This document shows positions 6,921 through 36,935 of a stretch of 37,546 bases of DNA, in pieces. The notes below the pieces were generated by a model. It was not told the origin of the DNA and searched no databases. It saw only the letters and a list, made by a program, of their open reading frames with translations. The first letter of the stretch is position 1. Each line of letters begins with the position of its first letter. A program made the translations under genes and the position numbers. This DNA comes from a virus (Duplodnaviria > Heunggongvirae > Uroviricota > Caudoviricetes). The stretch lies in the IMG/VR virus record IMGVR_UViG_2565956620_000003, one strand, 5' to 3'.

Positions 6921-6935
6921 AGCTTGTCTTCCCTG

Positions 6936-14069: not shown

Positions 14070-14614
14070 TGGCCAGACGCAGCACAATAGAAAAGCTGCC
14101 GGAAGACGTGCGCCGCTGGCTTGAACGGGCGCTGACTGAATCCGGCTTCAGCGGGTATAACGAGCTGGAGTCACTGTTGCGTGAGCGGGGGTACGTCATC
14201 AGCAAATCCGCTATCCATCGCTATGGACAGAAGATTGAGCGCCGCTATGGTGCTATCCGTGCGGCAACAGAAGCGGCCCGCATGCTGACCGAAGGCGCAG
14301 CAGACGATCAGGATGCGCGTTCGGAGGCTGTGATAGCCCTTATTCAGACCGAGCTGTTCGAGAGTATTGTCCAGTTGCAGGAGGCGGAAGAAGGCGAAGT
14401 CGATCCTAAAGAACGCGTGGCCCTGCTGTCGAAGGTGGCGAAGAATGTGGCTACGCTGTCCCGCGCGTCCGTCAACCTCAAAAAGTTCCAGTCTGAAGTA
14501 CGGGCCAGAGCGCAGCAGGCAGCCAGCAACGCCGAGAAAATTGCCCGTAAGGGGGGACTGTCAAGCGACGCAGTACAGGCGCTTCGTCGCGAGATTCTGG
14601 GGATTGCCACATGA
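14069..14614 (+). CDS. Putative terminase small subunit (Mu gp27-like)
   Basis: 181 aa; N-terminal DNA-binding-like region; immediately upstream of and overlapping the large terminase. Confidence 0.6.
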   Translation: MARRSTIEKLPEDVRRWLERALTESGFSGYNELESLLRERGYVISKSAIHRYGQKIERRYGAIRAATEAARMLTEGAADDQDARSEAVIALIQTELFESIVQLQEAEEGEVDPKERVALLSKVAKNVATLSRASVNLKKFQSEVRARAQQAASNAEKIARKGGLSSDAVQALRREILGIAT

Positions 14615-16206: not shown

Positions 16207-17702
16207 TGGCGAGGGGTATCTGGGTTTCACCCGATGAATTTGTTGCTTTTTCTGAGCCTCAGAAATCACTGACCGCGCAGATTGCCTCCCGCAGCCGCGC
16301 GATCGACTTTTACGGACTGGGCATGTATCTGCCCAATCCTGATCCCATTCTCAAGGCTCAGGGACGGGATATCCGTATCTACCGCGAACTGCGCACCGAC
16401 CCGCTGGTCGGGGGCTGTATCCGCAGACGTAAAGCAGCGCTCAAATCGCTGGAGCGTGGACTGGAGCGTGGTCACGCCTCTGCCCGGGTCTTCCGTTTCA
16501 TCCGCGACATGCTCGACGATCTGGATCTGTCCCGCATCATCGGTGAAATGAGCGATGCCGTGCTCTACGGGTATCAGCCCTGTGAAATCATGTGGGGCCG
16601 TTCGGTCAGGTCGTGGGCGGTGACGGATATTGTCGGCAAACCGCCTGAGTGGTTTCAGTTTGATACGGACAACTGCCTGCGCTTTCGGGCGCGTGATGCG
16701 GGTGTGGAGGGTGAGCTGCTGTCACCGTCAAAATTCGTGGTGCCGGCACAGGATGCCTCGTATGACAATCCTTACGGTTTCCCGGACCTGTCCATGTGCT
16801 TCTGGCCGGTCGCCTTCAAGAAAGGCGGGATGAAATTCTGGCTCCGCTTTGCCGAAAAGTTTGGCTCCCCGTGGGTGATCGGTAAGCACCCGAGGGGCGC
16901 AAATGATGCAGAGATTGAAAAACTGCTGGACTCCATGGAGCAGATGGTGGAGGACGCGGTGGCCGCCATCCCCGATGACAGCAGTATTGAGCTCAGGGCA
17001 GCGGATGGCAAGGCAGACAGCAGCGAGGTATTTCGCGAGCTGATCACACTGTCACGCAGTGAGATCTCCATTGCATTACTCGGTCAGAATCAGACCACGG
17101 AAGCGAACAGTAACAAGGCCTCTGCACAGGCCGGGCTGGAGGTAACGGCTGATATCCGCGATGCGGATGCGGACATCATTCAGGCGGCAGTGAATCAGGT
17201 CATCAGAACGGTGGTCACCCTGAACTTCGGCGATGTGCCGTGTCCGGTCTGGGCCATGTGGGAACAGGAGGCCATTGATGACACCCGTGCCACCCGCGAC
17301 GAAAAACTCACCCGGGCGGGTCTGCGTCTGACCCCGCAGTACTTCAAGCGTGAGTACCAACTGCAGGACGGCGATATTGACGAGACACCACCGTCGGAAC
17401 GCCAGAATAACATGCTGCCGCTGTCATTTGCCGAGGCGATTGATGCTGATATTCAGGCTCAGCAGCAGCTTGACGACGCGCTGGACATTCTGATGAACGG
17501 AGGCGCGTTAAATGGCACGCTGGAACCCGTCCTGGCACCTCTGTTCAGGCGGGTCGAAAACGGGGTTAACCCGTCTGAGCTGCTGGGCGAACTGGCGGAG
17601 CTCTACCCTCAGATGAACACGGACGATCTGCAGGAGCGGCTGGCCCGCATTCTCTTTGTGGCAAATATCCGGGGACGTCTGCATGAGCGTGACAACGGCT
17701 GA
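16206..17702 (+). CDS. Portal protein (Mu gp29-like)
   Basis: 498 aa; position between terminase and the head morphogenesis gene; start overlaps the terminase stop. Confidence 0.8.
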   Translation: MARGIWVSPDEFVAFSEPQKSLTAQIASRSRAIDFYGLGMYLPNPDPILKAQGRDIRIYRELRTDPLVGGCIRRRKAALKSLERGLERGHASARVFRFIRDMLDDLDLSRIIGEMSDAVLYGYQPCEIMWGRSVRSWAVTDIVGKPPEWFQFDTDNCLRFRARDAGVEGELLSPSKFVVPAQDASYDNPYGFPDLSMCFWPVAFKKGGMKFWLRFAEKFGSPWVIGKHPRGANDAEIEKLLDSMEQMVEDAVAAIPDDSSIELRAADGKADSSEVFRELITLSRSEISIALLGQNQTTEANSNKASAQAGLEVTADIRDADADIIQAAVNQVIRTVVTLNFGDVPCPVWAMWEQEAIDDTRATRDEKLTRAGLRLTPQYFKREYQLQDGDIDETPPSERQNNMLPLSFAEAIDADIQAQQQLDDALDILMNGGALNGTLEPVLAPLFRRVENGVNPSELLGELAELYPQMNTDDLQERLARILFVANIRGRLHERDNG

Positions 17703-18504
17703 ACTGGCGTACTGCATGACGCTTCCCCCGAAGCGGGCAATCAACTACCTGAAGTCCAAAGGATATCAGATTACCTGGGACTGGGAAGAAATGTGGCAGG
17801 AGGCCCATGCCCGCGCCTTTACCGTTGCTAAAGTGACCCGCCTGGATATCCTGGAAGATATTCGCGGGGCACTGCAGCAGGCTGTCGATGAAGGAAAAAC
17901 CGATCGCTGGTTCCGGCAGGAGCTGGAGCCGGTGCTGAAGCGTAAGGGATGGTGGGGACCACGTGACACGACTGACCCGGTAACGGGTGAGCCGGTCACC
18001 ATTCAGCAGGGCAGTCCGTGGCGGCTCGATACCATCTTTCGCACCAATATGTCCGTACTCTACAGCGCCGGTCGTTGGGCGGAACAGATGGAAAACGTCG
18101 ACGACAGGCCGTACTGGATGTATACCGGCATCAACGACAGCCATACCCGCAGGAGCCATCTGGCGCTGCATGGTCTGGTGCTGCGCTGGGATGACCCGTT
18201 CTGGCAGGCATTTTACCCGCCGAACGGCTGGCGCTGCCGCTGTAGTGTTATTGCCCTGAGTGCGGCGGATGTACGTGCCCGTGGCCTGAAGGTTATCAGC
18301 TCCGGCTCTGCCATGGGCCAGGAACTGAAACTGGTCTCAGAGAAAACCGGCGAAATGCGGAACGTGGCCACCTTTAATACCGGCACCACGAAGGTGACCA
18401 CCGACGTCGGCTGGTCTTATGCTCCGGGGGCAGCATACCGTCCCGACCTGGCCCGCTATCAGGGTACGCTTCAGCCACTGGCACAACAGGAACTGAGAGG
18501 ATAA
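17683..18504 (+). CDS. Head morphogenesis protein (Mu F-like)
   Basis: ATG at 17683 (MSVTTAELAYCMTLPP...); conserved position after the portal. Confidence 0.7.
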   Translation: MSVTTAELAYCMTLPPKRAINYLKSKGYQITWDWEEMWQEAHARAFTVAKVTRLDILEDIRGALQQAVDEGKTDRWFRQELEPVLKRKGWWGPRDTTDPVTGEPVTIQQGSPWRLDTIFRTNMSVLYSAGRWAEQMENVDDRPYWMYTGINDSHTRRSHLALHGLVLRWDDPFWQAFYPPNGWRCRCSVIALSAADVRARGLKVISSGSAMGQELKLVSEKTGEMRNVATFNTGTTKVTTDVGWSYAPGAAYRPDLARYQGTLQPLAQQELRG

Positions 18505-18506
18505 CA

Positions 18507-18965
18507 ATGGCTTCCGATAACCTGGTCAGTATCACCATTAACGATAAGTCCCTGCGCCGGAGCCTCCGTGCGCTGGATCTTGCTGCCACAGACCTGGAGC
18601 CCGCGATGCGCAAAATCGCCGGAACCCTGCTGGCGGAAACACAGTTTAACTTTCTTGATGAGGGGCGTCCGGGGTGGATGCCCTCGCTGGCAGCGGAAGA
18701 ACGTGACGGGCAGACACTGCAGGATACCGGGCGTCTGATGGGGTCAGTATCAACCGACCATGACGACCGGCAGGCTGTTGTGGGGACCAACGTTGTTTAC
18801 GGTGCCATTCACCAGTTCGGGGGTAAAACGGGGCGTAATGAGTCTGTTGAACTTCCGGCCCGCCCGTTCCTGCCGGTGACGGGGGATGGAGAACTACAGC
18901 CTGAAGTGGTAATCCCCATCCTCGATACCATTGTCCGCCATCTTGAATCAGCGGCCCGTCGCTGA
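18507..18965 (+). CDS. Virion morphogenesis protein (Mu G-like)
   Basis: 152 aa; position and size as for Mu G. Confidence 0.65.
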   Translation: MASDNLVSITINDKSLRRSLRALDLAATDLEPAMRKIAGTLLAETQFNFLDEGRPGWMPSLAAEERDGQTLQDTGRLMGSVSTDHDDRQAVVGTNVVYGAIHQFGGKTGRNESVELPARPFLPVTGDGELQPEVVIPILDTIVRHLESAARR

Positions 18966-19021
18966 GTTTTCTCTCTTCAGGCGGGTGATTTATCATTGCC
19001 AGCGAATGAGGGGCTGTATTA

Positions 19022-19053
19022 CCTTTATAAAGGCTTTACAGCCTCTGTTTTAT
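19022..19053 (+). terminator. Candidate weak terminator/attenuator in the 214-bp gap before the protease gene
   Basis: 12-bp palindrome CCTTTATAAAGG (19022-19033) overlapping a short hairpin AGGCT-TTAC-AGCCT, followed by CTGTTTTAT. Confidence 0.3.
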
Positions 19054-19179
19054 AACCGCCTCCGGTTCACCGCATTGCTTTCCCTGTCCTTCTCCCCTGA
19101 TGTTTTCTAAAGCAGATTAAAATCGCCGGGCCTGCATTTCTCACAAACTGTCTCCGACAACATAACGCGGGACAGCAAA

Positions 19180-20295
19180 ATGTCAGCCATTCACATTTTT
19201 AAAGCCGGTACTCATACCGATATGCACGGCAAAAAACTGCCGTTCACGCCAGACGATCTTGCCGCCTGCGTGAAAGCCTATGACCCGTCCGTCCATGAAG
19301 CACCACTCGTGATTGGTCATCCCAGAACGGAAGACCCGGCGTGGGGCTGGGTGAAAGCCCTGTCGCTCAGCGGCGTCGATCTGATGGCAGAGCCTGCCCA
19401 GCTGGACCCGCAGTTTGCTGAGATGGTCACCGACGGACGATTCAAAAAAGTGTCCGCCTCTTTCTACCTCCCGGATTCACCGTCCAATCCGAAGCCCGGC
19501 GTGCTCTACCTTCGCCATGTGGGCTTTCTCGGGGCACAGCCACCTTCCGTCAAGGGGCTGAAACAGGTGTCCTTCAGTGAGCAGGAAGAAGGTGTGGTGG
19601 AGTTCGCCGACTGGCAGGCCATCACGAATGCCTCCCTGTGGGGAAAGCTGCGCGATTTTCTGATCGCCCGCTTCAGTCTGGACGAGGCAGAAAAAGTCCT
19701 GCCGGAATGGCAGCTCAACAGTCTGCGCGAAGAGGCGTACCGCGACACACTGTCGCAGGATGCAGCAGGTGCACAATTCAGTGAGACAGGCCCGGGGCCG
19801 TCTTCCGCAAGTAACGAGGAATCATCGATGACAAAAGAAGAGATTGAAGCCCTTCAGGAGGAGAACCGCCGCCTGAAGCAGCAGGCTGCTGATCGCGATG
19901 CGCGTGATGCACAGGTCAGACAGGAGCAACTGCATAAGGACAATGTGGCCTTTGCAGAAAAACTGGTCGCAGAGGGCCGTCTGGCTCCCCGCGCCTCCTC
20001 CGTGGTGGTTGCCCTGCTGGATGCCGTCGCCGGTGGCGACAAGCCGGTGGAGTTTGCTGAGGGGGAAAGCCGCACACCGCTGGCCACCGCCTTTCGTTCA
20101 TTGCTCTCCGACGGGGAGCCGGTGATGAATTTCGCCGAACAGGCCACAAAAGAGCGTGTCGGCGACACGGTGAAGGTGGATGTGGCAGAGTTTGCGGAAG
20201 CCGATCCTGAGCGTCTGGCCCTGCATCAGAAAGCAGTGGCCCTGTCCAAAAAAGAAGGCATCAGCTATGAGGCTGCTGTCGCACGCTGCCTGTAA
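19180..20295 (+). CDS. Head maturation protease / scaffold (Mu I-like)
   Basis: 371 aa; N-terminal protease-like domain and acidic coiled-coil C-terminal half, upstream of the major capsid gene. Confidence 0.75.
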   Translation: MSAIHIFKAGTHTDMHGKKLPFTPDDLAACVKAYDPSVHEAPLVIGHPRTEDPAWGWVKALSLSGVDLMAEPAQLDPQFAEMVTDGRFKKVSASFYLPDSPSNPKPGVLYLRHVGFLGAQPPSVKGLKQVSFSEQEEGVVEFADWQAITNASLWGKLRDFLIARFSLDEAEKVLPEWQLNSLREEAYRDTLSQDAAGAQFSETGPGPSSASNEESSMTKEEIEALQEENRRLKQQAADRDARDAQVRQEQLHKDNVAFAEKLVAEGRLAPRASSVVVALLDAVAGGDKPVEFAEGESRTPLATAFRSLLSDGEPVMNFAEQATKERVGDTVKVDVAEFAEADPERLALHQKAVALSKKEGISYEAAVARCL

Positions 20296-20309
20296 TTTAA
20301 GGAGAGAGC

Positions 20310-21263
20310 ATGTCTGATTACTTAAAAGGTAAACGTGTCGTTGATCCGGTACTGACCAGTATCGCCCGTGGCTATAAAAATGCCGCATTCATCGGCGAAC
20401 GTATTTTCCCCGTCGTGCTGACGGACAAGGAAGGCGTGCGTGTACCGACCTTCGGGAAAACCGCCTTTGTGGAATATGACACCGAGCGTGCCGTCGGGGC
20501 GGACAGCAATGTTCTGGTCCGTGAAAAAACAGGCACGCTGGACCTGGTGCTGGGTGAACACGATCTGGCTGCGCCGGTGGACTATCGCGAGCAGGCGGAG
20601 TCCATGTTTAACGAAGAGAGCAAGGCCATCCGTCGCGCCACGAATGGCGTGAACCTGCGCCGTGAACTTATCGCTGCCCGTCTGGCTCAGGATGAAAAGG
20701 TCTACCGTACCGGGCACGTCAAAAAACTGACAGCCAGTGATCGCTGGGCCGGTGGTAAGGGGGACCCCATCGGGGTGATTGAAGCCGGTATGGAAGCGGT
20801 CCGTACGGCCACGGGGCTGCGTCCTAACCTGATGACCATGGGGGCCGGCGTGATGGCGCTGCTGAAGTTCCACCCGGCGATTCAGGCCGCCATCGGAGCC
20901 AACGAACGCAAGCGCATCACCACAGAAATCCTGCAGGACCTCTTTCAGATCGAAGAGATCGTCATCGGTGCCCCAGTCTCCCTGCCGTCCATGAAAGCGG
21001 CAATGGATAAGAACAGCGTGCCGGCGGATATCTGGGGAGACAATCTGATGCTGCACTATGTCGGCAAACCGCAGCCGGGGGCGGACAGCGCGGACGAGAA
21101 CGAGCCGTCCTTCGGCTACACCCTGCGTCGTAAGGGGATGCCTGTTGCCGACAAATACGACGGAGCCGGTGGCAAGGTGAAGTACTGCCGTTATACCGAT
21201 ATCTACAAAGTCGCCGTGGTTGGTGGCGATGCCGGGTATCTCATTACCGGTATCAGTAAATAA
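20310..21263 (+). CDS. Major capsid protein (Mu T-like)
   Basis: 317 aa; good ribosome-binding site (AAGGAGAGAGC before ATG); position after protease/scaffold. Confidence 0.8.
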   Translation: MSDYLKGKRVVDPVLTSIARGYKNAAFIGERIFPVVLTDKEGVRVPTFGKTAFVEYDTERAVGADSNVLVREKTGTLDLVLGEHDLAAPVDYREQAESMFNEESKAIRRATNGVNLRRELIAARLAQDEKVYRTGHVKKLTASDRWAGGKGDPIGVIEAGMEAVRTATGLRPNLMTMGAGVMALLKFHPAIQAAIGANERKRITTEILQDLFQIEEIVIGAPVSLPSMKAAMDKNSVPADIWGDNLMLHYVGKPQPGADSADENEPSFGYTLRRKGMPVADKYDGAGGKVKYCRYTDIYKVAVVGGDAGYLITGISK

Positions 21264-22523: not shown

Positions 22524-22774
22524 TGAAAGAATACCGCTATTCCGGCCCGGCCAGCGGCGTCACGCTGTCGGACGGAACCGAAATCCTGCTCTGGCCGGGG
22601 AAGACGGTTTCCCTGCCGGAGGAGCATGACTACGTGAAGGTACTGGTGGCGCTGAAACATCTGACGCCGGTACCTGAAGAGACTAAACCCGCCGGCACAC
22701 CGGCTGTGCAGTCACCAAAGCGCAGAAGCAGCAGTGACAGCGAAGTGAAAACGGAGGACACCCATGGCAGCTAA
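22520..22774 (+). CDS. Hypothetical structural-module protein (84 aa)
   Basis: Packed ORF with 4-bp overlap at the start. Confidence 0.5.
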   Translation: MMKEYRYSGPASGVTLSDGTEILLWPGKTVSLPEEHDYVKVLVALKHLTPVPEETKPAGTPAVQSPKRRSSSDSEVKTEDTHGS

Positions 22775-24191
22775 CTATCTGCATGGTCCCGAAACCATTG
22801 AGGTGGAAAACGGTGCCCGCCCGGTTAAAACGGTGAAATCTGCCGTTATTGGCCTGATTGGTACCGCCCCGATGGGGGATGTCAATACGCTGGTACAGTG
22901 CCTGTCTGAGAAAGACGCAGCGGCATTTGGCAGCCAGTTCACCGGCTTTACCATTCCGCAGGCGCTGGATGCGATTTATGACCATGGTGCAGGCACCGTT
23001 CTGGTCATTAACGTCCTCGACCCGGCGAAACATAAAACGGCGATCGAGGATGAGGTGGTTACCTTTGACAAATCGACAGGGCAGGCCAGACTGGCGCATC
23101 CGGTTGTCGCTAATGTGGTGGTGAAAAACAGTGAAGGCAGCACCACCCACACGGCGAACACGGACTACCGTGTTGATGCGCAGGCGGGTGTGCTCACGAA
23201 CCTGGGCAAGGCTATTGAGGCCGGTGGCAGCGTGAAGGTGAGCTATGAGTACGCGGACCCGTCGAAGGTGACTGCGGCGGACATCATCGGCGGGGTGAAC
23301 AGCGCCGGAAACCGAACCGGCATGAAGCTGCTTAACGACAGCTTCAACCTGTACGGCTATTTCGCCAAAATTCTGATTGCGCCGGTGTTCTGCACCCAGA
23401 AGAGTGTCGCAGTTGAGCTTATCGCCATGGCAGAGAAGCTGGGCGCGGTAACCTACATTGATGCGCCTGTCGGTACCACCTTTGCACAGGCTCTGGCAGG
23501 TCGTGGCCCGGAAGGCACCATCAACTTCAATACCAGCTCCGACCGCGTCCGTCTGTGCTATCCGCATGTGAAGGTATATGACCCGGTGACAAACACAGAG
23601 CGTCTGGAGCCGCTCAGCCAGCGTGCAGCAGGTCTGCGTGCCAGAGTCGATCTGGACAAGGGCTACTGGTGGTCATCCTCCAATCAGGAGATTCTGGGGA
23701 TCACCGGCGTGGAGCGCCAGCTGTCCGCGATGATTGATGACCCGCAGAGTGAGGTGAACCTGCTTAACGAACAGGGGATCACCACGGTATTCAGCAGTTA
23801 CGGCAGCGGCCTTCGTCTGTGGGGTAACCGGACGGCAGCATGGCCAACGGTCACCCATATGCGTAACTTTGAGAACGTTCGCCGCACCGGTGATGTGATC
23901 AACGAGTCCATTCGTTATTTCAGCCAGCAGTACATCGACATGCCGATTACTCAGGCGCTGATTGATGCACTGACGGAGTCGGTCAACGCCTACGGTCGCA
24001 AAATGACTGGTGATGGTGCGGTACTGGGCTTCCGTTGCTGGTTTGATCCGGCCCGCAATCCGGAGACGGAGCTGGCCGCCGGGCACCTGTTGCTGAGCTA
24101 CAAATATACGCCACCACCGCCGCTGGAGCGACTGACGTTTGAGACTGAGATCACCTCGGAATACCTGTTAACCCTGAAAGGGGGCAACTGA
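22764..24191 (+). CDS. Contractile tail sheath protein (Mu L-like)
   Basis: 475 aa; followed by the tube gene. Confidence 0.85.
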   Translation: MAANYLHGPETIEVENGARPVKTVKSAVIGLIGTAPMGDVNTLVQCLSEKDAAAFGSQFTGFTIPQALDAIYDHGAGTVLVINVLDPAKHKTAIEDEVVTFDKSTGQARLAHPVVANVVVKNSEGSTTHTANTDYRVDAQAGVLTNLGKAIEAGGSVKVSYEYADPSKVTAADIIGGVNSAGNRTGMKLLNDSFNLYGYFAKILIAPVFCTQKSVAVELIAMAEKLGAVTYIDAPVGTTFAQALAGRGPEGTINFNTSSDRVRLCYPHVKVYDPVTNTERLEPLSQRAAGLRARVDLDKGYWWSSSNQEILGITGVERQLSAMIDDPQSEVNLLNEQGITTVFSSYGSGLRLWGNRTAAWPTVTHMRNFENVRRTGDVINESIRYFSQQYIDMPITQALIDALTESVNAYGRKMTGDGAVLGFRCWFDPARNPETELAAGHLLLSYKYTPPPPLERLTFETEITSEYLLTLKGGN

Positions 24192-24712
24192 TGTCAAAGA
24201 TTGAGATAAACCGCATCACGAATGCCAACATCTATCTGGATGGTACTAACCTGCTGGGACGGGCTGAGGAAGTTAAACTCCCCGATGTCTCCATGATTAT
24301 GCAGGAACACAAGGCGCTGGGGATGGTGGGTAAGGTGGAACTCCCGGCTGGTTTTGACAAACTGGAAGGCGAAATCAAATGGAACAGCTTTTACCGCGAT
24401 GCGATGCTGTCTGCCGCGAACCCGTACAGGTCGCTGGCACTGCAGTGTCGTTCCAGCGTCCAGCGCTACAGCTCGCAGGGGCTGATTGACGAAATCCCGC
24501 TGGTCACCTTCCTGACGATTATGTTCAAGAAGAACCCGCTGGGGACGTTCAAACAGCACGAGAACGCCGAGTTCTCCAGTAGCTTCACCTGCACGTATAT
24601 CAGACAGGTACTGGATGGTGAAGAGCTGCTGCAACTGGACTATCTGGCCAACATCTTCCGGGTCGGCGGTGTTGATCAACTGACTGACTACCGTATCAAT
24701 ATCGGGGGCTGA
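24191..24712 (+). CDS. Tail tube protein (Mu M-like)
   Basis: 173 aa; start overlaps the sheath stop. Confidence 0.8.
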   Translation: MSKIEINRITNANIYLDGTNLLGRAEEVKLPDVSMIMQEHKALGMVGKVELPAGFDKLEGEIKWNSFYRDAMLSAANPYRSLALQCRSSVQRYSSQGLIDEIPLVTFLTIMFKKNPLGTFKQHENAEFSSSFTCTYIRQVLDGEELLQLDYLANIFRVGGVDQLTDYRINIGG

Positions 24713-25093: not shown

Positions 25094-25429
25094 ATGTCAC
25101 AGACCCCATCCGATACTTTTAAATTGTCTTATCCCTTCACCACTGCTGCAGGCACCAGAATTGAGCTGGTTGAACTGAAACGCCTGACGGTAAAAGACCT
25201 GAAGCAGGTGCGCAAAATCAGCAAAAACCCGGCAGACTGGGACGAACCGCTGATTGCCCGCAGTACTGGTCTTCTCCCGGAGGATCTCGACAATATGGAT
25301 CTGGCTGATTACCTGCAGTTACAGAAACGATTTCAGCTCATCACGGGGATGGGTGAGAGCAACCAGGGCGCTGACGCAGGCGCAGGGGCTGCTGGCGAGA
25401 TGGTTCCGGTTTCAGCCGGGGGAGATTGA
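25094..25429 (+). CDS. Tail assembly chaperone (upstream frame)
   Basis: 111 aa; ribosome-binding site CAGGAGC; immediately upstream of the tape measure gene. Confidence 0.65.
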   Translation: MSQTPSDTFKLSYPFTTAAGTRIELVELKRLTVKDLKQVRKISKNPADWDEPLIARSTGLLPEDLDNMDLADYLQLQKRFQLITGMGESNQGADAGAGAAGEMVPVSAGGD

Positions 25430-25511
25430 TGCCCTCGATACTGACGATCTGGAGATGTGGCTGGAGCAGGCTGAAGAGCAAATCAAAAGCGAGTACGGCG
25501 ACAAATCATAG
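25254..25511 (+). CDS. Overlapping ORF, candidate frameshift extension of the tail assembly chaperone
   Basis: Open in the +1 frame relative to 25094..25429 and runs past its stop; the G-run CCGGGGGAG at 25416-25424 sits at the end of the upstream frame. Confidence 0.4.
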   Translation: MPAVLVFSRRISTIWIWLITCSYRNDFSSSRGWVRATRALTQAQGLLARWFRFQPGEIDALDTDDLEMWLEQAEEQIKSEYGDKS

Positions 25512-25586: not shown

Positions 25587-28538
25587 ATGTCGGGACAGTT
25601 TTCAGTCGGCGTTGTTATCGGCGGGATGATTGGCAGCACATTCCGTTCTGCAATGAGCGGTACCCGCCGTGCGCTTGATTCCCTGAGCGATACCTCACGC
25701 CGCCTGCAGGAACGTCAGAACGCTTTAACCCGTGCAACAGAACGTTATGGTCAACTGGGTTCTTCCCGGATGCAGCATCTCAACAGCGAGCTGCTGCGGG
25801 TAAGCCGCACCATGGAGCAAATTGAGCGCCAGCAGCGCCGTCTGTCAGCGGCATCCGCTACCAGTGATGCGCTGAAAGCTAACCGCATGGCGCTGTATGG
25901 TCAGGGGATTGAAGCGTATGGCATGGCACAGACTGTTTATCATACGGTTTCCCCTGCCGTTCAGCAGTCCATGTCTTTTCAGGACAAAATGATTGATATG
26001 TCGATCACCGCAAAATATGACAATAAAACGCGGGATGCACTTGCCGGACAGATAAAAGGCTGGGCGCTTAAATACAATCAGTATCAGGATGAGCTGCAGG
26101 AGGCGATGGGTTCACTCATCAGCGACAATATTGATAATGTGTCAGATATCGGTTTTCTGATGCCGGATATTGCCCGCGCGGCAACGGCAACACGCACGTC
26201 TGCTCAGGACTGGGCAAAAGTGGCCGCAGTCTGGCAAAACTCCCTGAAAGGCGCGGCCAGAGATTTTGGTGCCGTTCAGAATATTATGGCTTATGCCGGT
26301 GACCAGGGGTCATTTGAAATCCCGGATCAGGTCAAGTGGATGCAGTCCCTGGCCCCAATGATGGCGGGTATTGCCAGTGGAAAAGAGGCTGTTGCTGAAA
26401 TCGGGGCCAGTCTCCAGATAGCAAAAATCGGTGCAGGTTCCACCGACGAAGCAGCCAATAATTTTAAAAACTTTCTTACCAAAATTTTTGCCCGCGATAC
26501 TCAGAAACAGTTTGCTGATCTGGGTATTGATTTGCAGGGATCTATTGCGAGTTATAAAGCTGCGGGGATCTCTCCGATTGAAGGGATGTTGAGTGTTATA
26601 GAACGTTACCTCAATGCCAAAAGCCCCGAAGCGCTGGCCGGCTTCAAATCAGCCATGAAAATAAAGAATGATACGGCAAGAGATGAGGCACTTCAGGCTC
26701 TGGCGAAAAACTTTGGTCTGGGCGATATGTTCGCGGATATGCAGGTCATGGCATTTATCCGCCCGATGCTGGCCAACATGGACAGATATCGAGAGATCCG
26801 TGCCGGTGCTCTCAGGGCTGCGGATAACGATTTGCTTGCCAGTGCTTATGATCAGCGGCTGAAATCTCCCCTTGAAGCCACTAAAACACTTATGGTCAGC
26901 AGTCGCGATCTGGCAATTACGCTGGGCGATCAATTAGCTCCATCTTTTATTTCTCTGACTCAGGACTTGCTCCCACTCATTCAGGGGACAAAACACTGGG
27001 TGGCGACTCACCCGCAATTTGTCAGTGGGGCTTTTAAGCTCATCAGTGCGCTCCTTGCGATTAAGATAGCGACTGTTGGTCTCAAACTGGGGCTGAATCT
27101 CCTTATTTCCCCCTTTGTGAACGTCTGGAAAACTGCTGTTTTACTCCGGACCAACTGGCATCGACTGACTACCGCACTCGGAGAAGGTGGCAAATTACGC
27201 TGGCTTGTCACTGGATTCAGCCGACTGACCAGCGGAGGACTGAAACTCAGCAAAGTTCTGGCGGGCAGCCTCGTTCGCGGTTTTATGAGCGCTGCACGTG
27301 CCGTTCTCTGGATTGGGCGAGCGCTGATGATGAATCCCATCGGTCTCGTTATCACCGCTGTCGCGGCAGCAGCTTACCTTATCTACCGCAACTGGGGGGC
27401 AGTCAGTGGCTGGTTTAAACAGCGCTGGGCTGACATTCAGGAAGCCTTTAACGGCGGTATCGCGGGAACTGGTAAGCTGCTGATTAACTGGTCGCCGGCA
27501 GGCCTGCTCTATAAAGCCTTTGCGGCTGCGCTGAAATATTTCGGCGTTACTCTGCCGGCAAAGTTCACCGACTTCGGTGGCCATCTTATCGACGGTTTGA
27601 TTAACGGTATCAAAAACAAATGGGGGTCGCTCAAATCCAGTGTAACCGGAATGGGTGACAGCATCAGTAGCTGGTTTAAACAATGCTGGGCTGACATTCA
27701 GGAAGCCTTTAACGGCGGTATCGCGGGAACTGGTAAGCTGCTGATTAACTGGTCGCCGGCAGGCCTGCTCTATAAAGCCTTTGCAGCTGCGCTGAAATAT
27801 CTTGGTGTTGATCTGCCGGCAAAGTTTACCGACTTCGGTGGCCATCTTGTCGATGGTCTGATTAACGGTATCAAAAACAAATGGGAGTCGCTCAAATCCA
27901 GTGTAACCGGAATGGGCGACAGCATCAGTGGCTGGTTCAGCGAAAAGCTGGGCATTCATTCGCCGAGCCGCGTGTTTATGGGCTTTGGTGACAATATCGC
28001 GCAGGGGGCCGCCATTGGCCTGCAGCGGACCACTCCGCTTGCAGCTCTGGCCGGGCAGCGAATGGCCAGTGAACTGCTCCCCAGAATGCCCGTGAGCATT
28101 CAGGGGCCAGAAATACGGGATAACACTTCAGGTGTTCGCTTCAGTATGCCGTTGCCCGATATCAATGGGTTTATGTCGTCTGCTAAAAATGCGATCGGAG
28201 CCGTAATCAATAGTTTGTCTTCCATGCCCGCTATTCCGCTCTCCACCCGGGCATCGATTTTACCAGGGCAACGTCTGGCAAATGAGATGACACCGGATGT
28301 TCCCCGTATCCCCTCGCCTGAAATCCTGGCTGCCGGATATTCAGGCCGTGGTGCAGCTGCAACCGGCGGTGGAACGTCTGGTGGTATCCAGGTCAGCTTT
28401 AATCCTCAGTTTTTCCTCAATGGCAGGGAAACCACAGCGCCTGCAGGACTGACTGGTGCCCTGAATATGAGTCTGCATGAGCTGGAAAAAATGCTGGAGC
28501 GTCTGCTGGCTCAGAAACAACGTAAGGAGTACCGCTGA
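25587..28538 (+). CDS. Tail tape measure protein
   Basis: 983 aa; long helical N-terminal part, hydrophobic central segments, position after the chaperone pair. Confidence 0.9.
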   Translation: MSGQFSVGVVIGGMIGSTFRSAMSGTRRALDSLSDTSRRLQERQNALTRATERYGQLGSSRMQHLNSELLRVSRTMEQIERQQRRLSAASATSDALKANRMALYGQGIEAYGMAQTVYHTVSPAVQQSMSFQDKMIDMSITAKYDNKTRDALAGQIKGWALKYNQYQDELQEAMGSLISDNIDNVSDIGFLMPDIARAATATRTSAQDWAKVAAVWQNSLKGAARDFGAVQNIMAYAGDQGSFEIPDQVKWMQSLAPMMAGIASGKEAVAEIGASLQIAKIGAGSTDEAANNFKNFLTKIFARDTQKQFADLGIDLQGSIASYKAAGISPIEGMLSVIERYLNAKSPEALAGFKSAMKIKNDTARDEALQALAKNFGLGDMFADMQVMAFIRPMLANMDRYREIRAGALRAADNDLLASAYDQRLKSPLEATKTLMVSSRDLAITLGDQLAPSFISLTQDLLPLIQGTKHWVATHPQFVSGAFKLISALLAIKIATVGLKLGLNLLISPFVNVWKTAVLLRTNWHRLTTALGEGGKLRWLVTGFSRLTSGGLKLSKVLAGSLVRGFMSAARAVLWIGRALMMNPIGLVITAVAAAAYLIYRNWGAVSGWFKQRWADIQEAFNGGIAGTGKLLINWSPAGLLYKAFAAALKYFGVTLPAKFTDFGGHLIDGLINGIKNKWGSLKSSVTGMGDSISSWFKQCWADIQEAFNGGIAGTGKLLINWSPAGLLYKAFAAALKYLGVDLPAKFTDFGGHLVDGLINGIKNKWESLKSSVTGMGDSISGWFSEKLGIHSPSRVFMGFGDNIAQGAAIGLQRTTPLAALAGQRMASELLPRMPVSIQGPEIRDNTSGVRFSMPLPDINGFMSSAKNAIGAVINSLSSMPAIPLSTRASILPGQRLANEMTPDVPRIPSPEILAAGYSGRGAAATGGGTSGGIQVSFNPQFFLNGRETTAPAGLTGALNMSLHELEKMLERLLAQKQRKEYR
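27411..27932 (+). repeat. In-frame tandem duplication (2 x 261 bp) inside the tape measure gene
   Basis: Two adjacent, nearly identical 87-aa units beginning WFKQ(R/C)WADIQEAFNGGIAGTGKLLINWSPAGLLYKAFAAALKY...; copies start at 27411 and 27672. Confidence 0.85.
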
Positions 28539-29422
28539 TGTTTGCCGTACTGGGTGATATTGAGTTTGAGCTGATTACCTACTGGGACGGCTTCGAGGCC
28601 ACGTTCGGCGTCGATTATGCGGAGCATGCCCGCATCGGGGGTAAGCCTGGTCTGCAGTTCGTCGGCGACAGGCTGGACGAAATCCAGATAACTCTGGTTT
28701 TCCATCAGCATTATTGTGTACCCGATGTGGAGCTGGCGAGACTGCGAACAGCCATGAAAGCCCATCAGGCACTGGCGCTGGTCTTCGGCAACGGTGACTA
28801 TCGCGGCTGGTTCGTGATCACCGATGTGACTGCAACCAGCGAGCAGACTGACAGTACCGGCAACGTGCTGGCTGTCAGTGCCACCGTGTCTCTCCGGGAA
28901 TACACCGGTGACCCGAAAAATCCTCTGCAACCACCGGCAATACGCACGAAGCTCCCGGGTGTCGGGGCGGTCTCCGGTGCCATACCTTCACCTTCAGGGG
29001 TGGCGCAGTTCATCCGCAACGGCGTCAACTATGCGAAACAGGCGCAGTCTGTACTCCAGACCACTATCAGCGCCGTTCGGGTGACACAGAAAATGAAGGA
29101 TAACCCCGTTGTCGCACTGACCCGTGTGCCGGGGCTGATGAGCGGACTGGGTAATATCTCCGGGGCTCTGGGGAAAAGTGTTCCGGCGTTTAACGCACTC
29201 TCTGAATCCATGCCCGATGCCATCAGTCTGGCCAGAACAGCCAGCGAAGCAGCCACGTATGTACAGCAGGCACAGTCTGCGCTGAGTGGTGTGGACAAAA
29301 GAAATATTGCAGGTGCTCTGGATACCGTTTCCGGGCAGCTTAACGCCGTCGGCACAGCATTCAACCGCATGTCTCCGGGATTAAGTGCAATGGCCGCCAG
29401 AATACTGACGAGGAGTGTGTGA
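28538..29422 (+). CDS. Tail protein, P2 gpU-like N-terminal domain with C-terminal extension
   Basis: N-terminus MFAVLGDIEFEL ... ARIGGKPGLQFVGDRLDEIQI resembles P2 gpU; ATGA overlap with the tape measure stop. Confidence 0.55.
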   Translation: MFAVLGDIEFELITYWDGFEATFGVDYAEHARIGGKPGLQFVGDRLDEIQITLVFHQHYCVPDVELARLRTAMKAHQALALVFGNGDYRGWFVITDVTATSEQTDSTGNVLAVSATVSLREYTGDPKNPLQPPAIRTKLPGVGAVSGAIPSPSGVAQFIRNGVNYAKQAQSVLQTTISAVRVTQKMKDNPVVALTRVPGLMSGLGNISGALGKSVPAFNALSESMPDAISLARTASEAATYVQQAQSALSGVDKRNIAGALDTVSGQLNAVGTAFNRMSPGLSAMAARILTRSV

Positions 29423-33436: not shown

Positions 33437-34770
33437 TTATGGGAAACCTGAATGAAACAGAAAAGTGGGAAGAAAATATCTATCAACTGGAGACATCAGA
33501 TCCGGTTCTGGGTGGTGCAGACGGGATATCAAATCGAGCCCCCCGGCAACTGGCAAACAGGACGAAATGGCTGAAGAAGAAAACGGAGGAAGCCGCACAG
33601 TCACTGGCTGAACACGTACGTTCCCGTAACCACCCGGACGCGACACTGACAGCTAAGGGGTTCACCCAACTGAGCAGTGCCACCAACAGCACCTCTGAAA
33701 CGCTGGCCGCCACACCAAAAGCGGTCAAGGCTGCATACGACCTGGCAGCCGGCAAGGCGCCTGCCAGCCACACTCACCCGTGGAGTCAGATAACGGGAGT
33801 GCCTGCGGCTTCACTGACGGCAAAAGGCACCGTACAACTGAGCAGCGCCACGGACAGTCAATCAGAAACTGAGGCTGCCACGCCGAAGGCGGTCAAGGCT
33901 GCATACGACCTTGCAGCCGGCAAGGCGCCCGTCAGCCACACTCACCCGTGGAGTCAGATAACGGGAGTGCCTGCTGCCTCGCTGACGGCAAAAGGCACCG
34001 TACAATTGAGCAGTGCCATCAACAGCACGTCTGAAATACTGGCCGCCACACCGAAAGCGGTCAAGGCTGCATACGATCTGGCAAACGGAAAACAACCGGC
34101 AGATGCCACGCTCACTGCTCTGGCAGGACTTGCCACTGCAGCAGATCGGTTGCCTTATTTTACCGGAGCAGACCGCGCAGAGCTGGCAACCCTTACAGCT
34201 ATTGGTCGCGCTATTATCGCTAAGGGCAGTATAAAAGATGTCCTCAATTACCTTGGTTTAGGAGAAGGCTCGGCGCTACCCGTTGGTGTGCCTGTTCCGT
34301 GGCCCACCGCCACACCGCCAGCAGGCTGGTTAAAGTGCGACGGGCGCGCCTTTACAAAAGAACAATATCCTGTTCTGGCCAGAGTCTACCCGACCCTCCG
34401 TCTTCCCGATTTACGCGGTGAGTTTATCCGTGGATGGGACGACGGGCGCAAAGTTGATACAGGACGTAAGTTGCTGTCCGCACAAGGGGCAACGCTGTTA
34501 AGAACAGCAATGCTGGATTATTATAACCAGGACACTACGGGAACCTCGGGGATAGTCGGCATGGGATTCAACAATGAAGATTCCATTACAGACCTTCGTG
34601 AGGGCAGCTTTAAAATGCCGGACGGGACAACATTCAGCGATCCTGTCGTGGCAATGTCAGACAATGGTATGCAGGCTACTATTCTGACCTCTATCAGAAG
34701 CGGGTATGCGAAGGGTATCACTGTCAGACCCCGTAGCATTGCACTTAATTACATTGTGAGGGCAGTTTAA
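33433..34770 (+). CDS. Tail fibre protein: constant N-terminal part plus the currently expressed variable C-terminal cassette 1
   Basis: 445 aa; internal 56-aa tandem repeats; its C-terminal about 170 aa begin with the sequence GEGSALPVGVPVPWPTATPPAGWL that is also found at the start of two minus-strand cassettes. Confidence 0.85.
   Translation: MIMGNLNETEKWEENIYQLETSDPVLGGADGISNRAPRQLANRTKWLKKKTEEAAQSLAEHVRSRNHPDATLTAKGFTQLSSATNSTSETLAATPKAVKAAYDLAAGKAPASHTHPWSQITGVPAASLTAKGTVQLSSATDSQSETEAATPKAVKAAYDLAAGKAPVSHTHPWSQITGVPAASLTAKGTVQLSSAINSTSEILAATPKAVKAAYDLANGKQPADATLTALAGLATAADRLPYFTGADRAELATLTAIGRAIIAKGSIKDVLNYLGLGEGSALPVGVPVPWPTATPPAGWLKCDGRAFTKEQYPVLARVYPTLRLPDLRGEFIRGWDDGRKVDTGRKLLSAQGATLLRTAMLDYYNQDTTGTSGIVGMGFNNEDSITDLREGSFKMPDGTTFSDPVVAMSDNGMQATILTSIRSGYAKGITVRPRSIALNYIVRAV
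33646..34100 (+). repeat. About 2.7 tandem copies of a 168-bp (56-aa) tail-fibre repeat
   Basis: Units starting CTGAC at 33646, 33814 and 33982; protein unit LTAKG..QLSSA..S.SE..AATPKAVKAAYDLA.GKAP.SHTHPWSQITGVPAAS. Confidence 0.75.
34246..34271 (+). other. Candidate recombination crossover site A (gix/hix-like), inside the fibre gene
   Basis: TTACCTTGGTTTAGGAGAAGG; its reverse complement aligns with sites B and C around an AAACC-AA core. Confidence 0.5.
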
Positions 34771-35390: not shown

Positions 35391-35852
35391 TCACGCCGCC
35401 CTCACGATATAGTTAAATGCGATATTGCGGGGGCGAGCTGATACATAAGCCCACCAGTCATATCTTTGTGCACCTTTAGAGGATGCATCAAATATCCACT
35501 TTTTGCCATTTAAGACCCCCAGTTGATTAGAGGTTAAAGCGTCACCAAATCCGTATTGTGTAGAGCCGAGCGAACTGATATCTCCGGTATCATTATCATC
35601 AAAACCGGATACGATAGTCCCTTCCTGAAATGAAAGTAGCGCACGCCCGGTATCAACCTTGCGACCACCGTCCCATCCACGGATAAACTCACCGCGCAAA
35701 TCGGGAAGACGGAGGGTCGGGTAGACTCTGACCAGAACAGGATATTGTTCTTTGGTGAACGTAGCTCCGTTGCACTGTAACCAGCCTGCTGGCGGTGTGG
35801 CGGTGGGCCATGGAACCGGTACACCAACAGGCAATGCAGAGCCTTCCCCCAA
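35391..35852 (-). CDS. Silent alternative tail-fibre C-terminal cassette 2 (no start codon of its own)
   Basis: Begins at the crossover-like site with TTG (Leu in the fused reading frame) and LGEGSALPVGVPVPWPTATPPAGWLQCNG, about 90% identical at DNA level to the start of cassette 1; ends with the shared motif RPRNIAFNYIVRAA. Confidence 0.7.
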   Translation of the reverse strand: MGEGSALPVGVPVPWPTATPPAGWLQCNGATFTKEQYPVLVRVYPTLRLPDLRGEFIRGWDGGRKVDTGRALLSFQEGTIVSGFDDNDTGDISSLGSTQYGFGDALTSNQLGVLNGKKWIFDASSKGAQRYDWWAYVSARPRNIAFNYIVRAA

Positions 35853-35863
35853 ACCAACGTTTC
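35838..35863 (-). other. Candidate recombination crossover site B
   Basis: Plus-strand sequence CCTTCCCCCAAACCAACGTTTCTATG at the 5' end of cassette 2. Confidence 0.5.
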
Positions 35864-36291
35864 TATGCCGCCCTTACGATGTAATTAAACGCAATGTTAC
35901 GGGGACGAATGGTCACATAATTAACCCCATCGCCTCGCGAAGGACCTGCAAATGAAAAACGGGAGAATCCAGGTTGGTTGTCAACGATTTGGTCATAGTT
36001 ATTGATTGAATGACCAGACCCAATGTCAAAATTACCTGCGTAATGAGAAAAACTTGTACCATCCTGCCGTGAAAGCAGATCGCGCCCTGTATCCACTTTT
36101 CGCCCGTCGTCCCATCCACGGATAAACTCACCGCGTAAATCGGGAAGACGGAGGGTCGGGTAGACTCTGGCCAGAACAGGATATTGTTCTTTTGTAAAGG
36201 CGCGCCCGTCGCACTTTAACCAGCCTGCTGGCGGTGTGGCAGTGGGCCACGGAACAGGTACACCAACGGGCAGCGCCGAGCCTTCCCCCAA
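35863..36291 (-). CDS. Silent alternative tail-fibre C-terminal cassette 3 (no start codon of its own)
   Basis: Begins with TTG at the crossover-like site; first ~200 bp about 97% identical (inverted) to 34262-34460 of the fibre gene; ends with RPRNIAFNYIVRAA; an in-frame TGA lies just upstream of the site on the minus strand. Confidence 0.7.
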   Translation of the reverse strand: MGEGSALPVGVPVPWPTATPPAGWLKCDGRAFTKEQYPVLARVYPTLRLPDLRGEFIRGWDDGRKVDTGRDLLSRQDGTSFSHYAGNFDIGSGHSINNYDQIVDNQPGFSRFSFAGPSRGDGVNYVTIRPRNIAFNYIVRAA

Positions 36292-36308
36292 ACCAACGTT
36301 TATCTCTC
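36283..36308 (-). other. Candidate recombination crossover site C
   Basis: Plus-strand sequence CCTTCCCCCAAACCAACGTTTATCTC at the 5' end of cassette 3, about 55 bp upstream of the invertase gene. Confidence 0.5.
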
Positions 36309-36362
36309 AAATCCTCCCCACATTATCTCAGTACTTTAACCACTCAAAAGGGAGTATTTTTA

Positions 36363-36935
36363 ATGCTGATTGGCTACATACGTGTGTCAACAAATGACCA
36401 AAACACAGATTTGCAACGCAATGCATTAATGTGCGCAGGATGTGAACAGATTTTTGAGGACAAAATGAGCGGAACCAAGTCGGAACGACCAGGCCTGAAA
36501 CGCGCTTTAAAGTGCCTTAAAAGAGGGGATACATTGGTGGTCTGGAAGCTGGATCGGTTGGGTAGAAGAATGAAACACCTCATTGCTCTCACAGAAGAGC
36601 TACGCGCAAAAGGTGTCAATTTTCGCAGTCTGACGGATTCAATCGATACCAGCACTCCGATGGGAAGGTTCTTTTTTCATATGATGGGTGCACTGGCAGA
36701 AATGGAGCGTGAACTGATAGTTGAGCGCACGCTGGCTGGACTGGCTGCTGCGCGAGCACAAGGAAGAGTTGGAGGACGTCGCCCGAAACTGACGAAGGAG
36801 CAGCATGAGCAGATCGCAAGATTGCTCCAGAAAGGGTATGACAGAAAGCGGCTGGCAATTATCTATGATATTGGACTGTCAACGATCTACCGCTATCACC
36901 CTGTTGGGACTGTCATAACGCAACCTGAAATGTAA
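36363..36935 (+). CDS. Serine DNA invertase (Gin/Hin/Cin/Pin family)
   Basis: 190 aa from ATG 36363; N-terminus MLIGYIRVSTNDQNTDLQ with the catalytic serine in RVST; C-terminal HTH; ribosome-binding site AAGGGAG upstream. The track ORF start at 36234 is an unsupported upstream extension. Confidence 0.9.
   Translation: MLIGYIRVSTNDQNTDLQRNALMCAGCEQIFEDKMSGTKSERPGLKRALKCLKRGDTLVVWKLDRLGRRMKHLIALTEELRAKGVNFRSLTDSIDTSTPMGRFFFHMMGALAEMERELIVERTLAGLAAARAQGRVGGRRPKLTKEQHEQIARLLQKGYDRKRLAIIYDIGLSTIYRYHPVGTVITQPEM

Follow-up and report, generated by a model that had tools for sequence, protein, structure and literature searches.

The 983-aa ORF considered here encodes the tape measure protein (TMP) of the EC958 prophage Phi2, which is Mu-like, has a contractile tail of P2 type and is common in E. 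coli ST131. Phi2 was recognized through the match of its TMP gene in genome comparisons, and its Mu-like nature through the Mu-like head and early genes found by an ORF scan of the window, that is, the whole 37,546-nt stretch of DNA that was analysed; the tail is assigned to the contractile type because a tail sheath gene is present (Table 1). The TMP scored above the curated cut-offs of two TMP family models, PF10145 PhageMin_Tail (1.3e-20, 74.6 bits against a cut-off of 33.2) and TIGR01760 of NCBIfam (2e-16, 59.9 bits against 28.8), also matched PHROG tape measure families, and is identical to a sequence labelled phage tail tape measure protein in RefSeq. The gene order (sheath, tube, DUF7739, gpE-type chaperone with a second-frame ORF, TMP, gpU, gpX, gpD, gpV and, after one 115-aa ORF, baseplate J) places the gene 3' of the tube and the chaperone pair and 5' of the baseplate hub genes, as is typical for a TMP. 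In the chaperone region, a first ORF (25094-25429) overlaps the second-frame ORF (25254-25511), which in a related prophage locus (L002) is labelled 'GpE family phage tail protein' in RefSeq. A PDB sequence search with the whole TMP returned no match, and the structure model of aa 572-816 (pLDDT 40, pTM 0.21) gave hints of helices but was too poor for use; given this low confidence, a helical, extended geometry of the repeat region is an assumption.

Table 1. Coordinates of the TMP gene, its repeat array and neighbouring features in the window.
Feature	Position	Strand	Remarks
Tail sheath gene	22764..24191	+	Pfam Phage_sheath_1 and Phage_sheath_1C
Tail tube gene	24191..24712	+	Pfam Phage_tube, 2.9e-53
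Tail assembly chaperone, gpE type	25094..25511	+	Pfam Phage_TAC_7; directly 5' of TMP gene
Tape measure protein (TMP) gene	25587..28538	+	983-aa ORF holding the repeat
Antisense ORFs, no gene support	27195..27959	-	254-aa ORF; also 27509-27697 and 27770-27955 in another frame
Repeat unit 1, first-type	27403..27663	+	Codons in frame from 27405; diagnostic residues G2 R7 F46 T49 I62 G74
100-nt tract in unit 1	27424..27523	+	Longest identical run, shared with unit 2
Repeat unit 2, last-type	27664..27924	+	Diagnostic residues S2 C7 L46 D49 V62 E74
100-nt partner tract in unit 2	27685..27784	+	Longest identical run
13-nt start of third unit, TCAGTGGCTGGTT	27925..27937	+	Encodes SGWF; array end in Tandem Repeats Finder
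gpU-type tail protein	28538..29422	+	Pfam Phage_P2_GpU, 7.4e-39; directly 3' of TMP gene

Tandem Repeats Finder reported a single array within the TMP gene (27403-27937; period 261, 2.05 copies, 94% matches, no indels, score 965), and a 261-nt ungapped match at 94% identity is beyond chance. A second repeat search set the units at 27403-27663 and 27664-27924. With 261 = 87 x 3, the repeat unit is in frame, and the 983-aa ORF runs unbroken across both units. Repeat analysis, TMP family matches and synteny thus bear out the in-frame tandem duplication of 87 codons proposed for the TMP gene in the initial annotation, whose coordinates (27411-27932) denote the same array shifted by 8 nt onto a codon boundary; either repeat phase is valid, the array being followed by 13 nt of a third unit. 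This 13-nt microhomology is found also 3' of the lone unit in one-copy alleles (junctions compared in L002, L003, L010, L005, L008 and the allele of this phage, hereafter W) and is present in the single-unit outgroup too. The units, described initially as almost identical, differ at 15 nucleotide positions (94.3% identity) with 6 amino-acid replacements, corresponding to a dS of 0.15 and a dN/dS of 0.24. The differences are unevenly spread: nt 22-121 have none, nt 1-21 have 3 and the remaining 12 lie in nt 122-261; an identical run of 100 nt is improbable under permutation (P = 0.009). Unequal crossover or conversion probably uses this tract, and short-read assemblies are likely to collapse the repeat there.

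The array lies directly 3' of a long hydrophobic stretch (aa ~570-600 of the TMP). Scanned alone against NCBIfam, the 87-codon unit matched no family. Hand reading of one unit located W/F residues at unit positions 3, 4, 8, 15, 29, 39, 46, 54, 57 and 73, with spacings of 11 (4 to 15 and 46 to 57) and 18 (73 to 91) in an irregular series; a sub-period of 3 x 29 aa, which the unit length would permit, was dropped, the thirds being dissimilar by eye. A diversity-generating retroelement pair was likewise rejected: 14 of the 15 differences are transitions, they run in both directions, involve all four bases and are not adenine-specific, and the units are adjacent and in frame, unlike such a pair. 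No reverse transcriptase was found among the scanned ORFs, which were part of those in the window. On the minus strand, the two shorter ORFs overlying the array lie exactly one unit length (261 nt) apart, with 84% identity, the translation of the 254-aa ORF repeats in step with the unit, and none of these ORFs is annotated in RefSeq records; we accordingly ruled them out as genes, in keeping with their initial description as mirror artefacts of the repeat.

We compared W with related prophage loci (L002-L011). Complete genomes with identical gene neighbourhoods contain one, two or three units at the orthologous site, which correspond to TMPs of 896, 983 and 1070 aa, respectively, and the 896-aa and 1070-aa ORFs are intact. 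RefSeq lists TMPs of 896 aa for L002, 983 aa for L007-L009 and L011, 1070 aa for L005 and 821 aa for L003 and L010, the 821-aa lineage being more distant (~89% identical) with one non-hybrid unit. Partial sequences aside, the closest 120 proteins all fall in the 896-, 983- or 1070-aa class. Among Phi2-type prophages, that of FDAARGOS_1258 has three units and those of IPCEC48 and TUM14759 have one, these two being otherwise identical over the 561-nt region compared. Single-unit alleles are present in 70 of 634 complete genomes, and three-unit alleles accounted for 12 of 60 and 8 of 30 entries in evenly spaced samples, as read from match spans in the sampled rows only. The initial annotation had predicted a tail longer than in relatives with one copy; such relatives do exist, but with two and three units also represented among the relatives, this phage belongs to the middle length class. 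Homologues of the module extend much further, with 573 representative clusters matched, and 34 of 90 distant full-length TMP matches contained 2-4 module matches with periods of 76, 42, 49 and 113 aa.

The two-unit form itself is sound. Short-read assemblies are indeed disrupted by tandem repeats as large as these, drafts are rich in single-unit versions, and the nearly identical 'phage PhiKM' record, on which no paper appeared among the five hits listed in a literature search, is interrupted by a 100-N gap exactly where the repeat lies. Nevertheless, that one unit was expanded during assembly is vanishingly unlikely, given 15 differences between the units that spurious expansion would not make. 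The W gene is matched at >=99% in 371 complete genomes, the best 60 of which are all 100% identical over 2952 nt; they come from many laboratories and platforms and include EC958, assembled from PacBio reads only, for which the part of the published PacBio/454 discrepancy table that we consulted has no TMP entry. The check for an assembly artefact called for initially was therefore passed, and if any form were artefactual, it would be the collapsed single-unit one.

Comparison of individual units across prophages gives no support to a recent duplication. Corresponding units of different prophages have only 0-5 differing sites, so that first and last units each form a cluster: the last units of eight phages differ by 0-5 nt, and unit 2 of W differs from the other seven by 2-5 nt. 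By comparison, 14-20 nt separate the first unit of a phage from its last. Unit 1 of W has its nearest counterparts in the middle unit of the three-unit L005 (2 nt) and in unit 1 of L011 (3 nt), and differs from the remaining first units by 7-9 nt. The dS between units is 0.13-0.21, as opposed to 0.01-0.10 for alleles outside the repeat, with a dN/dS of 0.24 in both. The recent date assigned in the initial annotation is thus not supported, in view both of the unit dS of 0.15 in W, which is above the range for two-unit alleles outside the repeat, even for those most diverged, and of the clustering of first and last units across prophages of unrelated strains. Judged from these distances, the repeat is an old module widely shared by related prophages. 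The TMP alleles are mosaic, the 5' part being up to 4% divergent and the 3' part 0.2-0.5% in most relatives (2.1% in L009); between W and L008, divergence drops across the repeat from 3.8% in the 5' part to 0.3% in the 3' part. This recent sharing of the 3' segment partly accounts for how nearly identical last units are from phage to phage, and so blurs the dating.

Hybrid units, the signature of unequal exchange, are evident both in the variable sites tabulated for the units and in the diagnostic residues. The single unit of L002 equals unit 1 of L008 in its 5' part, save for a private change at nt 87, and unit 2 of L008 exactly in its 3' part. At the protein level, one-unit alleles have the signature GR+LDVE and middle units SC/SR+FA(I/V)G. 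In the hybrids, crossover intervals map inside or next to the 100-nt identical tract. On this evidence, the hybrid units of the sampled three-unit and 896-aa alleles fit unequal crossover inside an array of two units, with changes from two to three units or from three to two both compatible. Because their units are hybrid, combining a first-type tip with a last-type body, the sampled 896-aa one-unit alleles seem to have arisen by secondary collapse and not to preserve the ancestral state.

These observations bear directly on the possibility that the duplication is recent and private to this phage, with single-copy relatives preserving the ancestral state. Relatives with a single unit exist, and nt 22-121 of both units are identical, as that scenario would have it, but the 896-aa single-unit alleles are hybrid and hence derived, and the identical tract better fits later conversion or crossover, since other alleles differ there. 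Moreover, the units have accumulated 15 differences (dS 0.15), and unrelated strains harbour prophages with the same order of first and last units and with TMP 5' parts that have diverged by up to 4%. We regard a private recent duplication as very unlikely and largely refuted.

Under the reading that we favour, an old repeat reshaped by unequal exchange, a 261-bp segment between 13-nt direct repeats (TCAGTGGCTGGTT) would have been duplicated once the ~89%-identical single-unit lineage had branched off but before the spread of today's two-unit alleles; the microhomology probably seeded this first duplication. Since then, purifying selection has acted on the diverging units as it has on the rest of the TMP gene. 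Recombination between misaligned units has produced three-unit alleles, with a middle unit that joins a last-type tip to a first-type body, and also one-unit alleles, with a unit that joins a first-type tip to a last-type body. Unit 1 of W is mosaic as well, with a first-unit tip on a body like that of the middle unit of a three-unit allele, and it shares the 100-nt identical tract with unit 2, so W itself has passed through such an exchange.

The units might instead have diverged before the array was born, if unequal recombination joined the single-unit TMP genes of two co-resident phages; unit divergence would then be uninformative on the age of the array. The mosaic TMP alleles with divergence falling across the repeat (W versus L008) are consistent with such a join, as are the bodies of the two types, which differ at 12 of 140 nt and are each nearly invariant across phages, and the 13-nt border repeat of single-unit alleles could mediate the joining. 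Still, among the loci and 120 proteins examined there is no pure first-type or last-type single-unit allele, the one-unit alleles all being hybrids or the distant outgroup, and the outgroup unit is roughly equidistant from the first and last types (23-32 differences), as for a duplication within one lineage. We therefore consider the joining of two phages unlikely as the origin of the array.

Part of the one-unit class is probably the product of assembly collapse rather than recombination. Single-unit alleles that equal W outside the repeat are common in short-read drafts and are present in only 3 of 634 complete genomes, and some of these W-type alleles display first-last-first mosaic signatures that are impossible by one crossover. 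Since the join lies in the 100-nt identical core, graph collapse and recombination yield the same sequence, and single-unit versions of the TMP gene in short-read assemblies are unreliable; many of the single-copy 'relatives' in such drafts may be collapse artefacts.

The tail tube polymerizes around the tape measure protein, and gpH of phage lambda is a tail-length ruler, with engineered in-frame deletions and duplications. In TP901-1, TMP deletions and duplications scale tail length, and the loss of 347 aa took the tail from 118 nm down to 65 nm, or 0.153 nm per aa (PMC5099701); T4 gp29 is a ruler in a contractile tail (PMC12929629). If the Phi2 TMP acts likewise, the tube and sheath would polymerize from the baseplate up to the end of the TMP, each unit would contribute ~13 nm (87 aa x ~0.15 nm), or about three tube/sheath rings, and TMPs of 896, 983 and 1070 aa would define three tail-length classes. 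By analogy with these rulers, a tail ~13 nm longer per repeat unit is a reasonable inference. Conceivably, the repeat alters the protein and not the length of the tail, for example as a module for membrane insertion or DNA ejection or as a cleaved part, with copy number being neutral or related to infection. The position of the units directly after the hydrophobic stretch is in line with such a role, some regions of the TP901-1 TMP are needed for infectivity and not for length alone (PMC5099701), and myovirus TMPs mostly lacked tandem repeats in one survey (PMC13585406). However, deletion in TP901-1 of either the repeats or the hydrophobic Tm2-3 segment directly 5' of them gave a proportionally shorter tail (PMC5099701), and gp29 truncations shorten the contractile tail of T4 (PMC12929629). 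In addition, the dN/dS of 0.24, equal to that of the rest of the gene, indicates that both units are kept as functional protein. An effect on the protein without one on tail length hence seems improbable to us. Taken as a whole, the locus is very probably explained by an old 87-codon TMP repeat whose copy number has been changed by unequal crossover and which would serve in a ruler, adding ~13 nm per unit.

The Phi2 TMP belongs to the same protein family and occupies the same position in the tail cluster as the rulers of lambda (gpH), T4 (gp29) and TP901-1, and the change is an in-frame one in an internal part of the TMP, of the kind that altered the TP901-1 tail proportionally (PMC5099701). 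Unlike the engineered changes in these systems, the variation in Phi2 is natural and spans one to three units in a Mu-like prophage with a P2-type tail. Tandem repeats contribute to TMP length variation, and contractile-tail phages are reported mostly to lack them in the TMP (PMC13585406), unlike Phi2. As with the 11/18-residue aromatic repeats of TP901-1 and other phages, repetition within the TMP provides a substrate for duplication and deletion, although the Phi2 unit is long (87 aa), is present in one to three copies and shows only partial 11/18 spacing by hand reading. The hybrid units are composed as reciprocal products should be, with exchange in or beside the longest identical tract, as in the classical crossover of bacterial tandem duplications; unlike classical expansion and collapse, the Phi2 case is inferred from population data only.

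The Phi2 repeat is, in these respects, an ordinary example of length change in phage TMP genes. A bolder and quite unlikely reading is that the 87-codon module is a quantized length cassette, with frequent unequal exchange keeping populations of this prophage family polymorphic for tail length, in three classes set apart by ~13-nm steps (about three tube rings), and with selection by the thickness of the host surface (capsule or O-antigen) maintaining the polymorphism. If true, it would be a contingency-like locus for the geometry of the virion in a phage with a contractile tail, within the group reported to be mostly devoid of TMP tandem repeats. The locus provides a clean natural case of TMP genes changing length in discrete steps, in which the microhomology that probably gave rise to the first duplication is found together with both kinds of product that unequal crossover should yield. 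A clinically common lineage of E. coli here offers a natural series of 896-, 983- and 1070-aa alleles, on which the ruler rule could be tested for contractile tails of the P2/Mu type.

Tandem Repeats Finder detected a single array in the region, at 27403-27937, with a period of 261 nt, 2.05 copies, 94% matches and no indels. The array lies inside the 983-aa ORF for the tape measure protein (TMP), confirming the in-frame 87-codon tandem duplication described in the initial annotation; the span given there, 27411-27932, denotes the same array shifted by 8 nt onto a codon boundary, and the minus-strand ORFs were correctly regarded as echoes of the repeat. To call the two units almost identical was an overstatement, as they differ at 15 positions, resulting in 6 amino-acid replacements (unit positions 2, 7, 46, 49, 62 and 74; GRFTIG in unit 1, SCLDVE in unit 2) and 7 purely synonymous codon changes. 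The differences are clustered, nt 1-21 holding 3 and nt 122-261 holding 12, with the 100 nt between them (nt 22-121) identical in both units; an identical run of this length has P = 0.009 under random placement. Fourteen of the 15 differences are transitions, a marked skew given the small number of sites.

Features of the window around the TMP repeat and in its prophage context
Feature	Coordinates	Strand	Details
AAA ATPase	3974-5179	-	Mu-like gene, left part of the window
rve-family transposase	5151-6920	-	Mu-like gene, left part of the window
Mu-type portal	16206-17702		Mu-like head gene
Mu F	17656-18504		Mu-like head gene
Tail chaperone gene	25094-25429	+	Phage_TAC_7
Overlapping second-frame ORF	25254-25511	+	Stops shortly ahead of the TMP gene
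TMP ORF holding the array	25587-28538	+	983 aa; 87 codons per unit
Unit 1	27403-27663	+	Ungapped repeat search
Unit 2	27664-27924	+	Ungapped repeat search
Invertible tail-fibre segment	34250-36935		Inverted-repeat arms 34250-34478 and 36071-36299, 229 nt, 94% complementary
Third arm copy	35632-35860		85%
Pair of alternative Collar-domain fibre C-termini	35391-35852, 35863-36291	-	
Gin-type invertase	36234-36935		

The ORF carrying the array matches the tape measure families of Pfam (PF10145), NCBIfam (TIGR01760) and PHROG. It is preceded by genes for the sheath, the tube, a DUF7739 ORF and a gpE-type chaperone with its second-frame ORF, and followed by gpU, gpX, gpD, gpV, one further ORF and baseplate J, a content and order indicative of a P2-type contractile tail. 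The chaperone ORFs (25094-25511) are the usual frameshift pair; in one relative, the second frame carries the RefSeq annotation 'GpE family phage tail protein'. The tail module is joined to Mu-like early and head genes (3974-8173 and 14611-21263), and the nearest phage record, PhiKM, is classified under Bcepmuvirus. E. coli EC958 has the TMP gene at 1013310-1016261 with 100% identity, a location adjoining the invertible tail-fibre region described for prophage Phi2 (Forde et al., PMC4134206); by conversion of the coordinates reported there, the tail-fibre segment of the window is the known Phi2 inversion system.

The repeat is real. The TMP gene is matched at ≥99% in 371 complete E. coli genomes, and the best 60 of these, including EC958, are 100% identical across all 2952 nt. 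The EC958 assembly is described as built from PacBio reads only, and the portion of the PacBio/454 discrepancy table considered here lists none at the TMP gene (PMC4134206). Long reads therefore retain both units rather than the single copy expected of an assembly artefact. Spurious expansion is ruled out, the 15 sites that distinguish the units being unlike an artefactual copy.

The earlier description of the duplication as recent is not supported. The window's two units have a dS of 0.15, and those of relatives 0.13-0.21, exceeding the 0.09-0.10 found outside the repeat for the most diverged two-unit alleles, and the table of variable sites groups the units by position, not by phage. Last units from eight prophages are only 0-5 nt apart and first units likewise resemble one another across prophages, whereas first and last units inside one phage are 14-20 nt apart. 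The dN/dS of the units (0.24) equals that of the 5' part of the gene (~0.23-0.24 when the four most divergent allele pairs are compared), and hence both units have been maintained as functional protein. In the outgroup, an 821-aa single-unit lineage (L003, L010), the unit is about equidistant from both unit types (23-32 differences), which fits a duplication later than the outgroup split.

The alleles are mosaic, so that the similarity of the last units partly reflects a recently shared 3' segment. Over the 5' 1816 nt of the gene (25587-27402), the window diverges by 3.7-4.1% from relatives L002, L008, L009 and L011, and over the 3' 614 nt (27925-28538) by 0.2-0.5% from L002, L008 and L011 and by 2.1% from L009; for L008, divergence falls from 3.8% upstream of the repeat to 0.3% downstream. 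Such a contrast implies that a recombination breakpoint lies within the repeat or close to it. Inter-phage recombination might also have joined two single units that had already diverged, an origin that we consider unlikely beside duplication after the outgroup split. Whichever origin holds, the two-unit arrangement is common to many unrelated strains and is neither recent nor private.

Comparison of ten loci in which the order of genes from tube to gpV is shared, together with the PhiKM record, revealed three copy-number classes: one unit in an 896-aa TMP (L002) and in the ~89%-identical 821-aa lineage (L003, L010), two units in 983 aa (L007, L008, L009, L011), and three units in 1070 aa (L005, as well as L004 and L006, both annotated as frameshifted). 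The 896-, 983- and 1070-aa classes recur among the 120 closest database proteins, partial sequences aside. Seventy of 634 complete genomes are single-unit, defined as covering at least 80% of a single-unit query in one piece. Two evenly spaced samples, of 60 and 30 rows, contain 12 and 8 three-unit alleles, respectively. Of the 12 in the first sample, seven have spans consistent with three units and five show one common match pattern, three units being confirmed among these five in L006 only. Alleles with more than three units were absent from the loci, proteins and sampled rows. The outgroup TMP gene is ~37% diverged in its 5' part, and 213 nt (71 codons) are missing from its 3' part as well, at columns 135-347 past the repeat; thus, TMP length varies at more than one site in the group. 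In PhiKM (L001, PQ738613), the sole closely related phage record, the TMP is annotated as two fragments and a 100-N gap (L001 4915-5014) lies exactly where the repeat starts.

Composition of the units points to unequal exchange. The single unit of L002 equals unit 1 of the two-unit L008 at the variable sites of nt 1-117, save a private change at nt 87, and unit 2 at all those from nt 122 onward. At the protein level, the six diagnostic residues of most 896-aa single-unit alleles are GR followed by LDVE, which combines a first-type tip (5' part) with a last-type body (3' part), and middle units of three-unit alleles carry SC or SR with FA(I/V)G, a last-type tip and a first-type body. These hybrids match the compositions expected of reciprocal products of a misaligned crossover in a two-unit array. 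Unit 1 of the window, nearest to the middle unit of L005 (2 nt) and unit 1 of L011 (3 nt) and 7-9 nt from other first units, is itself a mosaic; together with the 100-nt tract common to unit 2, this indicates that the window allele underwent such an exchange, in one direction or the other.

One single-unit allele, P0103 (L012, L013), matches the window exactly on both sides of the repeat and is very common in short-read drafts. The assembly collection has it in 545 blocks, mostly draft contigs, but just 3 of the 634 complete genomes carry it (NZ_CP128877.1, NZ_CP124460.1, NZ_AP026794.1). Its join falls inside the 100-nt identical core, so a real crossover and short-read graph collapse look alike. 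Further window-type single-unit proteins are first-last-first mosaics (GRLDIG, GRLDVG, GRLDIE), which lie beyond the reach of one crossover and look like collapsed consensus sequences. Some seeming single-copy relatives are therefore probably artefacts, and TMP length comparisons over draft genomes need caution.

The role of the TMP as a ruler is established in general. In TP901-1, TMP deletions and one duplication altered tail length proportionally, and removal of 347 aa shortened the tail from 118 nm to 65 nm, or 0.153 nm per residue (PMC5099701); in T4, which has a contractile tail, gp29 is called a ruler and its truncation yields shorter tails (PMC12929629). At 0.15 nm per residue, one unit would add ~13 nm. 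Rings of tube and sheath rise by ~4 nm, and the increment would equal roughly three of each. The longer tail initially predicted should best be framed as a one-, two- or three-unit polymorphism, in which the window phage would reasonably occupy the middle of three tail-length classes. The AlphaFold model of the repeat region is unusable (pLDDT 40), and sequence search found no solved structural homologue of the TMP.

The initial 13 nt of the unit, TCAGTGGCTGGTT (SGWF), are present again directly after the last unit, and the single-unit outgroup has flanking copies TCAGTAGCTGGTT and TCAGTGACTGGTT; thus, a short direct repeat bounded the segment beforehand. Short direct repeats are a classical substrate for initial duplication via slippage or illegitimate recombination, and either process, acting at this pre-existing 13-nt repeat, may have produced the first duplication. 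A search of the 87-aa unit against 1.84 billion representative proteins retrieved 573 clusters at E ≤1e-3 and 320 at ≤1e-10. Among the best 150 matches, 90 were at least 700 aa long, 56 with one copy, 25 with two, 7 with three and 2 with four, and distant TMPs showed repeat periods of 76, 42, 49 and 113-114 aa. Multiple copies with differing periods indicate that this part of the TMP has been duplicated many times, with varying borders. The window is one further case of this recurrent duplication.
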